Source: a virus
Lineage: Duplodnaviria; Caudoviricetes
DNA: 62,132 bases
Virus record (IMG/VR): IMGVR_UViG_3300035670_000211
Span: 1 to 62,132 of that record
Reading direction: 5' to 3' (one strand)
Both the position numbers and the translations under genes were made by a program. Below are positions 31,201 to 37,200 of this stretch, piece by piece; within the stretch, counting starts at the first letter, position 1; each line of letters begins with the position of its first letter. The notes under the pieces were generated by a model. The model saw only the letters and a list, made by a program, of their open reading frames with translations. It was not told where the DNA came from and ran no database searches.

Positions 31201-34200
31201 TTGAAGTAATTTACTAACGGAGCGTAAGCTCTTTCAAAAAATGAAACAAACTCTTCGCCTGTATTATATTTGCCAAGTATTGCGCTATATTCTTCTTTGT
31301 AGTTTTTAAGAAGCATTGTCAATTCAACTTTGTCTTTTTCTAAAATACCTTCTTTGCCAAGCGCAGCTTCTATTTGTGGAATAACAACATTATAATATTT
31401 TAACGCGGCATATTTTTGCAACTCTTGATAAGCTCCATATCTTTCGGCAAGATCTGCCAAGTTTTCTAAAGGTCTTGAAAATTTCTTCATAAAGAATTTT
31501 TGGTTTGTCGCGTAATCTTTAACCATACGTTCAACTTCTAAATCAAGTGTTGTTCCAACTTTAATACCACCCGATGCTAAAAGATCGGCTTTAAATTGTG
31601 TGGTTAAAGCTTCTATGTTTTCTTGATATTCAATTCTCTTTTGGAATTGAGCTTCATAGCTATCACCAAAGTCTTCTTCGGGGTTAAGGTTTCTTAAAAG
31701 TGTGTCGAGCTGTGTGTTTCTAATTTCGTCTCCAAAAATAGCAGCTCTTTTAAGAACACTTTGCATATCTTCTCTTTCTTGTAATTCAAGCGCCTTTCCA
31801 TTTGCTTCACTAAATCCCTTGCTAATTAAGTTTTTGCCTAAAGCGTCTTTAATTGTTTTGCCTTTAGCATTCACAATATCCAAGAAACGATCTGAACTTA
31901 ATTTTTTTCTTAAGTCTTGCGTAACATTTTTTAAATCAGAATTAATAAAGTCTGGCGTATAAGCAAGTTGAATGCGTTGATCGTTTGGGTTAACAGCAAT
32001 ATTTGTTAACGAGAAAGGAAGATAGATACTTGGATTGTATCCAAACAATGTCGCTCTTTCATAGTTGTTTTTAGCGCGAGCAGTTGCTCCGATAATGTTT
32101 GCCAAGAATCTAGCTTCAGATCTGAACAAACGTTTATTACCGTTTCCTAATTCAACATTTAATTCTGGTCCATAGTTTTTACTTGTAAACTTCCCAGTTT
32201 CAGAATCAAAGGAGCGATAGTTTAAGTATTCTTCGTTTGTATAATCTTCTTGTGTTAATCTCGGAGCCCCTTGTTCAGAATAAAGAGATGGTTTTAAGAC
32301 GCCGCTTTCAACAGAGTTAACTGGACTTTTAATATATTCTCCTGTTTTTTGACTTGTCGATCCTTTGCCAATAACTTGCGGGTTGTCAATAAGGAGTGCG
32401 TCATTCAAATTGATTGTTCCGAAGTTATCAGAAATGGATCCACCAACACCTTGTCCTAAGTTTAAAATCTTTTTAATGCTTAAGTCTTGTAAGTTTTTTC
32501 TGCTTAAGTTGTAAATGTTTGTACCGTATGCTTCGTTTGTTTTGTTGATGAGGAATTGTAAGTATTCAACCATTCCCATGTTTCCAAATGCTTCGCTTAA
32601 AACAATGTTTTCGCCATACTTAGAAGTTGTAAGATCTCTTGCTAAACCACCTTGTGTTCTAAAGTTTCTAAGCTTTTTATTTTCTTGTGCATTCTTTCTT
32701 GCAAAGCTTGCGGTCTTTGAAGAGAATTCTAAATCAGCAACACTGGTTAAAATCCTTGGGTTGCCATCTTGTAAAAACATTTGATATAATTCATCGCTAA
32801 CAAGAATTTTTTCAATTGGGCTTAACCGTTCAAAGAAGTCTGGCTCAGATTTATGAAGAATTTTAAACTCTTTGCTAAATAAATCCATTAATTCAGACGA
32901 GCTGTAGTTTGTTAAATTTTTATATCGTTTTGTTTTTTCTGCTTCGCTTAAGTTTGAGTACTTAATATTAATTACGTTTAACATATACGCGTGCAATGAA
33001 GCTGCGTTGTTTTCTAATAATGTTGGTTGATTGTACGTTTCAAAAGATTTGTAACCGTCTTCAATAATTTTATCGGAGAATTTAATTTCATTTCCATCCA
33101 CTTCAAATAAATAATCTTTGGTGATAATTGGTCCGGTTAAATTTCTTCTGCCAGTTGAGATAGCAATGTCATCAGTAAATCTTTCTTTGAGATCTCTTCT
33201 GAAGAAAGATTCTTGTGAGATCATTGTTGGTAATTGTTTAATCATCCAAGCATCGGCATCTTTAATTGAGTCTACTTTTTCAAACTTACCATCTACAAAA
33301 CGATAGTACTCAACAAGACCTTTTTCAATTCTACTTTTTAGAATCTTGTTAAAGAAAGGCGTTGCATTCTTTTGTTTAAAACTATCTTGTGAAAAGACAA
33401 AGTCTGCTTCAACACCAGAATCGCGAATGGCGTTTTCTAAATTATCATTGACAGTTCCACCCAATGTGCTCTTAAAGTTTTTTGTTCCAGCAACAGTAAA
33501 CTTAAGATCAGCATCATATCCACGTTTGTAAGTGAAAACAACATTTAACGTGCCATCTTTATTTTTAATAACGCTTTCGATTTTAGATCCGGCTGGAATT
33601 GTTTTTCCATTGCCCAATAAGATATCCGACTTTAATATTTTTCTGTTTTGTGCTTGCAGACCCAAAAGAATTTTTGCATCTTCAAAGTTTACTTTTTCCC
33701 CGTACAATTTATAAAGCGAAATACTTTCTGCGCCGTAGGTTTTTTTATTTCCACGAACAATCTTGTGTGTATCAACTTCAATGTTTTCGCCAAACACATT
33801 TTGATTAATTAAAATCATTGCGTTTACGTGCATGTCGGAAACAAAACCATCACTATCTTTGTCATAAATATCGTGAACCGAATCATACATTTCTTTGTAA
33901 CTTCTTGAATTGTTTTCTGTCGAATCTAAAATCTTTTGTATTTCTAATTGGAAGTTTAAATTTCTTTTGGCTGAGTTGTTACTTGAAGCCCAGTAGTTGC
34001 CAAGATTATTTGATTTAATTGCGGCAAAAATTCTTTCCATCTTGGAATTAAAATCAAGCATTGTCATGTTTTCCAAATCGAATTCTTTTTTACCATCAAA
34101 AGCGCCAGTTAAAATTCCAAATGCTTTTAACACTTCTAGGTTTTCTGATTTAATTGAATCTAAAATATCTTTGTCTAAGTTTTTATACTGGTTTAACCCA

Positions 34201-37200
34201 AAGGCAAATTTATCTTTAGTGTCTTCTGATTCCATAATAAACTTGTTCATTAATTGAAATGCCGAGACAATGTCATTTCCAGTTTCTGCATTTGCAACAA
34301 GGTTAACAATATATTTGTACATATCAGAACCAATAATTCTTCTGACACTATCTGCTTGAGCAACCATTGAAGTTAACATTGCTGCTTTTGTTGCATCAAT
34401 ATTTCTAGAAATAATATTAAACGTTCCTTCTGAAACATCAAACGCTGCATAATTAAATAACGCTCGTCCATCTTGCGAATTAATTTTTTCAGACATTTTG
34501 TTTGTAAGTTTTTGTTTATATCCAGAATAAACGTCAGCAGCAGCTTGTTTTTCGAAGTTGAAAATTTTTGCAGCATTTAAAAGTAAAAAGGCATTTCTAT
34601 TAATTTCAATATCTGAAGCAAAAATATTTAACGAAACATATGTAAACGGGGATTCCCCAACAGACTTTGCGAATTCAGTGATATCATATTGCTTAATCCA
34701 AATTTGATCTAAGATGTCATCGAGATCTTTGTCACTAAACTTGTTGGCATCTTCTCTTAAAAGGTTTTTTAAATAATCTTTTCTTTGAGTTCTAAGTGTT
34801 TCATAGTTAATAGTATTTTTGTTTAAGTTATCAAGGTCGGCAACAATAAACTGTGATGCAAAGTTTCTTTGCGTTTCAAAATCAAGAACAACTTTTTGTG
34901 TTTCAGAAAGTGATCCTGATAAAATATTTTTTTCTTGAGTCAATAAAGAATCAAACCCTTGATCAAAAATATCGAATATTAAGTTATAGTTTTTTGAAAT
35001 TGCGGTATTAAAAGCCACCGATCCTTTGGTTGGTTGTAAGATTGAAATACTATCGCCATCAACGTCACCAGACAAGAAAGCTTTTAAAACATCAAGGTTC
35101 ATAATAGGTTTATTTAAATATTTTGTTTCGCTTTTATCTAAGATGCGAACATTTAAAACGGCTTGTCTTCCAATACCATCTTGAGGATAACGAATAATAT
35201 TTAAGGGAATATTTCTATATCTCTTTTTGCCCGTGTCGTCTGGATAAAAAACTTTTAACGAATCTTCATAAGAAATTCCTGTAAGTTCTTTATATGTTTT
35301 TTCACTCATTGCAATTTCGTTTGCTTTAAGTTTTTCTAAAACAACATCTCCCTTTTCGTTATAAAGTTTGTATTCTCTATTACGATCTGTCGCAGTTACA
35401 CGATCATAAAACTCAGAGCGTCTAAAGTTAGAACCAAAACTATATTTGTTCAAGACACTCTTAAGTTGGTTTAAGAATTTGTTGCTGCCAAACAAACCTC
35501 TTAAGCGAACTCGTTCTTCAAAACTATTTTGATCTAAGTTAACGTTTCTTAAATAAACTTCGGCAGATTTGTTTAACATGTTTAAGACAACATCCTCTGG
35601 CAATCCTTTAAAGACATCTTCAAATATTGTTTCTTGTGCGTTTCTAAACGAGTTAACTTCTCTTCTTGAAACTTCATTATCATTGACGGCTTGCAAGTAT
35701 TCTTTTCCTGTTCTTATCACCCCAGTGGTTTCGTCAACAAAGCTTGTTTCTAAAAAGTTTTCAGACGCATCACGAATAATATTTCCTGAATAAAGTTTTT
35801 TGTTGTTTTGGAAGTCTTCATACGAGATGTCTTGAATTCCCCAGTTTGTTTTTACAGCTTTTGCAAGAATGTTAAAAGCCTCTTCTTCGCTTTCAACCGA
35901 AAAGAATTCATCATATTTATATTGGCTAATTGCTCTTGTTCCGGTTTCTTCATATTCACTTCCAATTGCAAACTTAAATAAATTAAATAGATCTCCTGTA
36001 AAATAACCAGAAGCCGATTCTGATTCAATACCTTTTTTAACATAGGAAGAAACATTTGTATCTAAAGGTTTGTTTGGATATTTTTTAGCTAAGAAATATT
36101 CTAGCATTTGCGGTAAAAACCGACTTGTATTTTTTTGAATGTTTTCGTAAACTTTAATTTTATTACGCAAGTCATCGTTAATCATTTCATTAACTTTCTT
36201 GCGATAAACATCGCGTTCAATAGAGTCAAGATAATCTTTGATGACGCTCATTGATTTCCCAATAGCTTCGTCAATTGCCGACGTATTTTTTGGATCGAAT
36301 GCATCTCGATATGCTTTAACAAATTCTAAAGTTGATTCGTCACCAATATCTTCTTCTTTTATTTTTTCAACACCTTCACCAATACGGATTGTTGTTTCTT
36401 GATCAATCTCTCTTCCGGTTGCGGCTTTATGAATATCATCAAGCGTAACAAGAATGTTAGAAGTAATTCTATTTGTATTTTTAAAATCATCCGCCAAGAC
36501 AAATAAAACTTTCGCCAACGTTTTAACGTCTTCGATAGAATCGTGTGCGCCTAAAACTTTGACACCAAACCTTTCTGCTAAGAAACTTAAACTATTCTTT
36601 TGTTGATCTTCAAAAATTGTTTCAGAAATAAATCTTTTTTCTTTAATGATATCTTGCAAAACGTCTAAGTGGTTTTGGTTAAAGATGTTTTCTCTTGTAT
36701 TAAAAATACCAGACTTAACTAAAATACCATCAATGTCTTTGCTACCAAAGTCAAAAGATGCTCCGTTAAAAGAAACTAACAAAGGCAATTCTTTTCCAAC
36801 GTTAGTATATCCGTAGCTTGCTGCCTCTTTAATAATGTAATCTTGAACTGCTTTCTTTCCGAGTTTTTCAAAGTCAGGAATATTTTTAACAACGTTATCA
36901 ATATTTTTGAAATAGTTTTCTAAGTTTCTTAATGTAACTTCTTTATTATCTTTAATAAACTTGTCATAGAATTCCGGCATTAATGTTTTGATTTGTATTT
37001 CTAATGGTTGATTTCCCGGAACCAATTCATTGAGTAACGTTTTGTTTAAGAATCTTCCTTTATAAAACATGGGAATTAAAATCTTTTTGCCAGAGTTTGC
37101 AAATGCGTTGTTGGGATTTAACAATGTTTCTTTAAGATCTGTAACTGGATTGGTTTTAATTAAAGACATTTCGTAAACCATATTATCTAAACTTTCAACG

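Follow-up and report, generated by a model that had tools for sequence, protein, structure and literature searches.

The 62,132-bp IMG/VR virus record IMGVR_UViG_3300035670_000211 (CheckV completeness 45%; its whole length is referred to below as the window) carries a gene for a cysteine-free protein of 5,604 amino acids, P0001, at the head of a terminase-portal-capsid (structural) operon. Motifs, conservation and gene context together make it probable that P0001 is a giant protein that is ejected and contains a two-barrel polymerase core. The best reading of the residues around a DVDGD pentapeptide in its central region is a catalytic site of the two-barrel type, as suggested by the conservation of that block, the spacing of an upstream Arg-x-Pro, leads from a protein-atlas search and the setting in a cysteine-free giant at an operon head. 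Fold, activity, virion packaging and the identity of the second-barrel segment are the parts of this interpretation that we infer.

In the arrangement proposed here, residues ~3225-4054 would form a single-chain two-barrel (double-psi beta-barrel, DPBB) nucleotide polymerase; the likeliest kind is a DNA-dependent RNA polymerase with which phage transcription begins. D3349, D3351 and D3353 would hold the catalytic Mg, R3307 and P3309 would be the invariant Arg and Pro of the Asp-bearing barrel, and a second barrel would contribute the basic residues contacting the incoming nucleoside triphosphate, with a downstream segment, residues 3755-3918 (K3870, K3877), as the leading candidate. A DEDDh exonuclease-like domain lies in the same chain, and the protein, virion-carried and ejected, would be a functional analogue of N4 gp50, crAss-like gp66 and P23-45 gp96. 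The original prediction for this DNA had likewise described a two-barrel RNA polymerase hidden in the giant protein, with a beta-prime-type barrel before a beta-type barrel; all nine strings that it quoted (9/9) occur in the translated open reading frame (ORF) where it had placed them.

The aspartate-bearing segment around DVDGD

28296..45110, minus strand: giant ORF P0001, 5,604 amino acids, no cysteine, a single ORF on translation, directly upstream of the large terminase gene
35025..35339, minus strand: beta-prime-type (DPBB-A-like) candidate segment, residues 3258-3362, with 4/4 invariance, low-confidence AlphaFold2 strands and atlas PF05183 matches
35184..35192, minus strand: R3307-Y-P3309, candidate match to the invariant Arg/Pro of two-barrel polymerases
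35052..35066, minus strand: D3349-V-D-G-D3353, candidate Mg-binding triad
34476..34610, minus strand: long conserved helix, residues ~3501-3545 (AF..L..A...NF..QA..D...G[YF]), bridge-helix candidate by position only

In the collections searched, the family consists of four sequences, P0001 and three relatives. A phmmer search with residues 3150-4300 against 1.84 billion cluster representatives (E <= 0.001) returned two proteins, a 122-residue fragment and P0002, which has 5,418 residues, is collinear with P0001 over its full length and is 34% identical in the core. A metagenome scan found a locus (L002) cut at the contig start, in which 2,715 residues of the giant protein are followed by terminase and portal genes, so that the order giant gene-terminase-portal is kept. 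IMG/VR scans added one 70.2-kb record (70,202 bp; G001, loci L005/L006; CheckV completeness 65%), in which the giant gene takes about a quarter of the length, leaving one contig end and resuming at the other with an overlap of ~52 codons and one mismatch; because these ends overlap inside the giant gene, G001 is probably a complete circular or terminally redundant genome of ~70 kb. Over residues 2881-4500, P0001 is 31-32% identical to the other three members.

Read from its N-terminal side, the candidate segment shows NEI...K.Y..TG, then N3304..R3307-x-P3309....G3314..A3317, then the DVDGD loop and P3360; within it, LKANEIAMSEKTYKEL spans residues 3261-3276, PLNIIRYPQD residues 3302-3311 (with R3307 and P3309) and LNVRIL residues 3319-3324. 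N3264-E-I, N3304, R3307, P3309, G3314, A3317, D3349-V-D-G-D3353 and P3360 are invariant in all four members, in agreement with the original expectation that DxDGD should be conserved in homologues. That prediction had given nucleotides 35052-35069 for the loop; the start is correct and the end is 35066, since 35069 adds one codon. Among 25-residue windows over residues 2881-4500, the DVDGD block is the conservation maximum and the R-x-P window ranks within the top ten; invariant columns make up 60% at the DVDGD windows versus 20% (304/1,501) over residues 2950-4450.

According to PMC2919709, two-barrel polymerases share eight invariant residues: one barrel holds three Asp, one Arg and one Pro, the other one Asp and two basic residues. 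The Arg and Pro are R446/P448 in Rpb1 and R962/P964 in QDE-1. P0001 has the DxDGD triad and an R-x-P 42 residues before D3349, within the known range of 35-45 residues (35 in E. coli beta-prime, 39 in gp66, 45 in QDE-1). The pattern R.P.{30,50}D.DGD appeared in 0.2% of 20,000 composition-preserving shuffles of P0001 (P 0.002), while the shorter D.DGD has an expectation of 0.088 per shuffled copy, against two copies in P0001.

The likeness to E. coli beta-prime (rpoC) includes Gly at triad position 4 (DFDGD versus DVDGD) and an R-x-P followed by G..A (NRAPTLHRLGIQAF versus IIRYPQDGIGRQAV), and segment-restricted hhalign and Smith-Waterman alignments both place DFDGDQMAVHVP on DVDGDSISILQP. When E. 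coli beta-prime 415-475 was slid along the giant proteins by Smith-Waterman, the site window was beaten by 6 of 275 windows in P0001 and by 5 of 265 in P0002. Judged from the shuffles and the conservation, the beta-prime-like match is modestly better than chance. Of the parallel originally drawn to beta-prime, the motif, the spacing and the fourfold invariance stand, and a profile or fold match did not materialise.

We also searched a protein atlas built on language-model features with residues 3225-3375. Clusters of PF05183, an RNA-dependent RNA polymerase family, took named ranks 2 and 3 (scores 0.80 and 0.79), and all ten best family-bearing matches agreed. The tool grades scores of ~0.8 as leads only (its mark is 0.9, and one third of shuffled proteins reach 0.8); we gave these leads weight because the family had been predicted beforehand from the motif. 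A 1,201-residue piece gave no usable match in the same atlas.

The long conserved helix at residues ~3501-3545 begins 150 and ends 195 residues after the triad, which compares with 168-198 residues for the bridge helix of gp66 (bioRxiv 10.1101/2020.03.07.982082); the alignments gave it no support as a bridge helix.

Homology and structure searches

Several results weigh against a polymerase core. Scanning the whole of P0001 in three pieces against Pfam and PHROGs with hmmscan returned only a weak RNase_T match and no significant polymerase match. PF00623, PF00562 and PF05183 had no match in the window at E <= 10, phmmer searches of the PDB with 1,500-residue and 170-residue pieces found none, and tblastn against 50,697 phage records gave no match supporting a polymerase. 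In profile-profile comparison by hhalign, a 105-sequence alignment of crAss-like virion RNA polymerases yielded nothing (probability 0.1 or lower), as did proteobacterial beta-prime and beta segment profiles (63-74 distinct sequences per segment; the 80 fetched loci are all at least 83% identical to E. coli). Sliding Smith-Waterman alignment against E. coli beta-prime and beta stayed at noise level and reproduced the originally proposed registers only at the triad.

Structure prediction was no kinder. The original prediction had looked to AlphaFold and Foldseek for two DPBBs, and this check gave no usable model: AlphaFold2 reached a predicted local distance difference test (pLDDT) score of 36 for residues 3157-4054 (898 residues, 2 alignment rows) and 48 for residues 3745-3930 (186 residues, 4 rows), with both putative barrel halves of the beta-like segment below 50, and three Foldseek searches of the models against PDB and BFVD returned nothing at E <= 0.001. 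Among the insignificant Foldseek rows were a poxvirus RNA polymerase subunit at rank 16 and p97 at ranks 40 and 44. Over the Asp-bearing segment (pLDDT 43-48) the model runs strand-strand-helix-strand-strand-helix-strand, an order compatible with a DPBB in a model too poor to use. A complex prediction of the two putative barrels with Mg scored 0.00 against a mark of 0.32; the partner fold is itself uncertain, and we count this result neither way.

P0001 also contains a second D.DGD, in DEDGDGKVD at residues 274-282 (44265-44291, minus strand), inside a fully conserved NPTIDEDGDGKVDWYLHR block and in a DxDxDGxxD context, which we take to resemble a calcium-type loop. Given this second copy, the pentapeptide by itself is not specific.

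How much the negatives count can be gauged from gp66, a proven polymerase. PF05183 and PF00623 missed gp66 too in the same search, so the failure of these models on P0001 weighs little. E. coli beta-prime, on the other hand, ranks the true gp66 site first, and hhalign finds that site weakly (P 0.018); since the P0001 site comes only near the top, its signal is weaker than that of gp66.

These results are the ground for a different interpretation, in which DVDGD is a metal-binding or structural site of another fold (a Ca/Mg site, or another nucleotidyl- or phosphoryl-transfer domain) and P0001 is an ejected or structural multi-domain protein with a nuclease and no polymerase. All statistical homology tests were negative, no barrel was predicted, another conserved D.DGD is present at residue 274, and the atlas scores lie in the range that shuffled proteins reach. 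We nevertheless hold this explanation to be unlikely, if well short of negligible: an R-x-P stands at the right distance and is followed by G..A as in beta-prime, conservation in the central region peaks at the DVDGD block, the atlas returned the very family that the motif had suggested, and gp66 is equally invisible to Pfam models. Of the original proposal of a divergent virion RNA polymerase, conservation, R-x-P spacing, atlas leads and the cysteine-free giant at an operon head speak for it, and no fold or profile match was obtained.

With a two-barrel core as the preferred interpretation, gp66 offers an instructive comparison. It is the virion RNA polymerase of the crAss-like Cellulophaga phage phi14:2 (PDB 6VR4; KC821624, locus tag gp077; bioRxiv 10.1101/2020.03.07.982082). 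Like P0001, it is large and combines a single-chain DxDxD with an R-x-P in front of it (R1322, P1324, D1361-1365); it has few cysteines (2/2,180) and no standard Pfam polymerase match, and both phages encode GroEL and a metallophosphoesterase. The two proteins differ in that no sequence or profile similarity connects them, the loop is DFDID in gp66 and DVDGD in P0001, P0001 is 2.6 times longer and includes an exonuclease-like domain, and the P0001 gene precedes that for the terminase whereas the gp66 gene lies at the end of the structural block. They also differ in barrel order, as set out below.

Two assignments to known families were rejected. Membership of the crAss-like virion RNA polymerase (gp66) family is contradicted by the comparison with the 105 sequences and by DVDGD in place of DFDxD. 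A hidden T7-like domain, as in N4, is contradicted by the absence of PF00940 from the window and G001 at E <= 1, in a search where the N4 control matched, and of a T7-type motif-B pattern (R...K......YG) from P0001.

The lysine-bearing segment and the proposed order of the barrels

33357..33848, minus strand: proposed beta-type (DPBB-B-like) segment, residues 3755-3918; hand-picked motifs, with lysines, DFV and N invariant in 4/4
33519..33716, minus strand: small strand-rich domain, residues 3799-3864, between the Asp and the lysines; the only confident AlphaFold2 part (block pLDDT 74-87)
32955..33053, minus strand: conserved block, residues 4020-4052 (LNQPTL..NNAA.LH...KYS), the second most conserved block of the central region

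For other two-barrel polymerases, PMC2919709 gives the residues of the second barrel as K979, K987 and D837 in Rpb2 and R738, K743 and D709 in QDE-1. The proposed counterpart in P0001 comprises an HxN strand, an Asp near 3780, an inserted small domain, K3870-x6-K3877-x2-K3880, D3903-F-V and N3915; VNAMILIN spans residues 3762-3769, LNVVFTYKR residues 3855-3863, ADLKFTVAGTKNFKSTL residues 3867-3883 (with K3870, K3877 and K3880) and ADFVFSQDSF residues 3902-3911. K3870, K3877, K3880, D3903-F-V and N3915 are invariant in all four members. The K-x6-K spacing of K3870/K3877 recurs in the gp66 family at the conserved K1005/K1012, a pair that we infer to be the active-site lysines of gp66. By eye, the segment also resembles E. 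coli beta (rpoB) in a K-x(6-7)-K and a DhVh strand ~30 residues later. The bacterial enzyme differs in having beta and beta-prime as two separate chains with beta encoded first; PF00623 and PF00562 have no match in the window, and unbiased alignments to both subunits are at noise level.

Several observations count against this assignment. D3780 is not invariant in the automatic alignment, although each relative has an Asp within 3 columns. Lysine makes up 8.9% of P0001, so a conserved K-x6-K is weak evidence. Unbiased Smith-Waterman and hhalign comparisons with E. coli beta gave noise-level scores and did not reproduce the originally proposed register. That the beta-like part exceeds chance could not be shown, and the parallel consists of hand-picked sequence motifs only; the lysines, DFV and N3915 of the claimed beta match survive as invariant residues, the aligned Asp and the register do not. 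The original prediction had itself ranked the beta-like match as weaker than the beta-prime-like one, the latter being modestly above chance. For the strand-rich domain between the Asp and the lysines, Foldseek returned no significant match.

If this segment does supply the second barrel, the barrels of P0001 would stand in reversed order. In the relevant papers, DPBB-B (the Lys barrel) precedes DPBB-A (the Asp barrel) in gp66, with a connector of ~140 residues (bioRxiv 10.1101/2020.03.07.982082), in QDE-1 (PMC2919709) and in gp64 and gp96 of P23-45, the gp96 connector being short and disordered (bioRxiv 10.1101/2022.12.01.518664 / PMC10770324); for YonO-like proteins the Lys-first order is only implied, through the bipartite domain shared with QDE-1 (PMC2919709). 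The statement in the original prediction that such enzymes have the Lys barrel first agrees with these papers, YonO being the implied case. The full texts searched describe no single-chain enzyme with the beta-prime-type barrel first, a negative to which the supplementary alignments of 23 RNA polymerase families in the P23-45 paper may be relevant.

Reversal is compatible with the invariant lysines downstream and with the character of the 420 residues that precede the Asp barrel, which are mostly helical, indel-rich and poorly conserved and offer neither a conserved candidate nor an invariant Asp/Lys set. No structure prediction or alignment statistic supports it, and because D3780 is unaligned, lysine is abundant and the beta alignments are at noise level, we keep the reversed order originally claimed as a tentative hypothesis, possible but less likely than not. 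Equally tentative is the full architecture, in which an Asp barrel and a bridge-helix-like helix would come first and a Lys barrel with an inserted domain ~400 residues later, fused to a DEDDh exonuclease in a cysteine-free ejected giant.

The core may instead be real with its Lys barrel elsewhere: it could, for example, precede the exonuclease domain, giving the customary order of B before A, or belong to another protein, and nothing would be reversed. Single-chain precedent (gp66, QDE-1 and the P23-45 enzymes) favours such a layout, the beta-like segment lacks alignment and fold support, and the upstream examination covered 420 residues, with three thousand more lying further upstream. We think it rather improbable, since those 420 residues offer no invariant set and are preceded by the exonuclease domain, and since the downstream K-x6-K, DFV and N parallel E. 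coli beta by eye (K1065/K1073, with DIVLNP ~30 residues later).

Returning to a core with the second barrel downstream, P23-45 gp96, a 5,002-residue tape measure protein of a Thermus phage that we compare by description only (10.1101/2022.12.01.518664 / PMC10770324), would share with P0001 a two-barrel polymerase within a ~5,000-residue particle protein; a role while the DNA enters the cell has been proposed for it. The polymerase of gp96 is N-terminal, its gene belongs to the tail module and DPBB-B precedes DPBB-A, whereas the P0001 core would lie at residues ~3,250-4,050 and its gene is upstream of the terminase gene.

Virion-delivered two-barrel RNA polymerases are already known from crAss-like phages and P23-45, and each further one that is unrelated in sequence is a measure of how frequently phages have reinvented or kept this ancient enzyme. 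If the P0001 core is real, it would be a further lineage hidden from all standard annotation models, in a very small and undescribed family. If in addition the order is reversed and the DEDDh nuclease cooperates, this would give the oldest polymerase fold a new architecture, with a barrel order opposite to that of every described single-chain enzyme, in ~70 kb phages in which no PolA, PolB, PolC or T7-like RNA polymerase was detected. Such an enzyme would offer a test case for the origin of beta and beta-prime from a single-chain ancestor, would mean that the two-barrel active site tolerates circular permutation, and would raise the question whether the nuclease edits the product.

The conserved block at residues 4020-4052 lies beyond the lysine segment. 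Its core is LNQPTL..NNAA.LH (residues 4026-4040). Among Smith-Waterman windows compared with E. coli beta-prime 415-475 the block ranks first, at a noise-level score of 39. By eye only, LNQPTL..NNAA.LH...KYS loosely recalls NRAPTLH or the beta 'QQP' motif.

Exonuclease-like domain, candidate virion traits and gene neighbourhood

36501..37223, minus strand: DEDDh 3'-5' exonuclease-like domain, residues ~2630-2870 (PF00929 RNase_T, 24.0 bits)
43479..44108, minus strand: Gly/Ala-rich hydrophobic segments, residues 335-544, in the well-conserved N-terminal region
29385..29471, minus strand: hydrophobic segment, residues 5214-5242, in the most conserved C-terminal region
26713-28296, minus strand: large terminase gene, the first gene after P0001
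46471-46546, minus strand: tRNA-Arg(TCT) gene, just upstream of the P0001 operon
59824-61326, in the window: GroEL gene

The exonuclease-like domain lies ~480 residues upstream of the polymerase-like core, in the same chain. Its PF00929 match is borderline (24.0 bits against a cut-off of 24, E 6.4e-5), covers the Exo III part only and is weaker in the whole-protein hmmscan. P0001 shows the Exo I DxE, Exo II NxxxFD and Exo III HxxxxD motifs, the latter two also present in G001, and the candidate catalytic residues D2637, E2639, D2787, H2856 and D2861 are invariant between P0001 and P0002.

Because a DEDDh domain is present and neither PolA, PolB and PolC (by Pfam family, in the window and in G001) nor a T7-like RNA polymerase was found, there is a small chance that the two-barrel core and this domain act together to replicate the phage genome, as a proofreading DNA polymerase that would in principle be PolD-like; the probable completeness of G001 at ~70 kb adds to the force of that absence. 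Many phages, however, have no DNA polymerase of their own, CheckV rates both records as incomplete (45% and 65%), a protein free of cysteine and encoded first in the structural operon is more suggestive of a virion component, and there is no sequence link to PolD, which was itself not compared. We regard a replicative role as very improbable, and continue to favour an RNA polymerase.

P0001 has no cysteine among 5,604 residues, versus 56 of 10,552 (0.53%) in 30 other ORFs of the window of at least 150 amino acids (P ~1e-13). The relatives have none either (0/5,418, 0/2,715 and 0/1,784), as is true of N4 gp50 (0/3,500), and gp66 has 2 in 2,180. As indirect evidence, this lack of cysteine, the operon position and the hydrophobic segments suggest that P0001 is most likely carried in the virion and ejected into the host. 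N4 gp50, the virion RNA polymerase of Escherichia phage N4, is packaged in the virion and ejected. The 3,500-residue protein (EF056009) resembles P0001 in being giant and cysteine-free and in a local match between its residues 226-296 and one Gly/Ala-rich N-terminal segment of P0001 (pairwise E 4e-6), which is only a lead because the similarity is absent in a database search. It differs in its T7-like catalytic domain (PF00940, weak, E 0.007), for which no counterpart was found in P0001.

At its end the P0001 ORF meets the start codon of the gene for the large terminase (26713-28296). Next in the window come genes for portal-like, major-head and tail-fibre proteins, for a metallophosphoesterase and for a primase; small plus-strand genes occupy a block at ~48.2-59.8 kb. 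Beyond G001, further alignment-based scans for relatives of P0001 found nothing. A degenerate DNA pattern for FNTFNQY matched 79 stretches, one of them a true relative (G001 again). A viral scan with a single protein found no relative, a word-indexed protein search (near and shorter lengths) returned P0001 itself only, and tblastn of the core, N-terminal and C-terminal parts against the 50,697 phage records gave no match.

The closest database relatives of the large terminase are just 27% identical (Arthrobacter phages and Vibrio phage CHOED). Most of the 475 records that match it are from phages of Pseudomonas, Escherichia, Salmonella, Vibrio and Roseobacter, a spectrum that may point to N4-like phages. 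The major head protein of the window had zero tblastn matches.

Two families of 28-31-nucleotide direct repeats (45962-45989, 48168-48195 and 49254-49281; 48385-48415 and 49275-49305) sit in the region of divergence between the minus-strand and plus-strand blocks and where the small plus-strand genes begin, and may be promoter or regulatory elements. On the plus strand, 51806-53785 encodes a borderline vWA-domain protein (23.6 bits versus 23.8), and 0.8 kb away, with two small ORFs between, 54564-56177 encodes a MoxR/AAA_5 ATPase.

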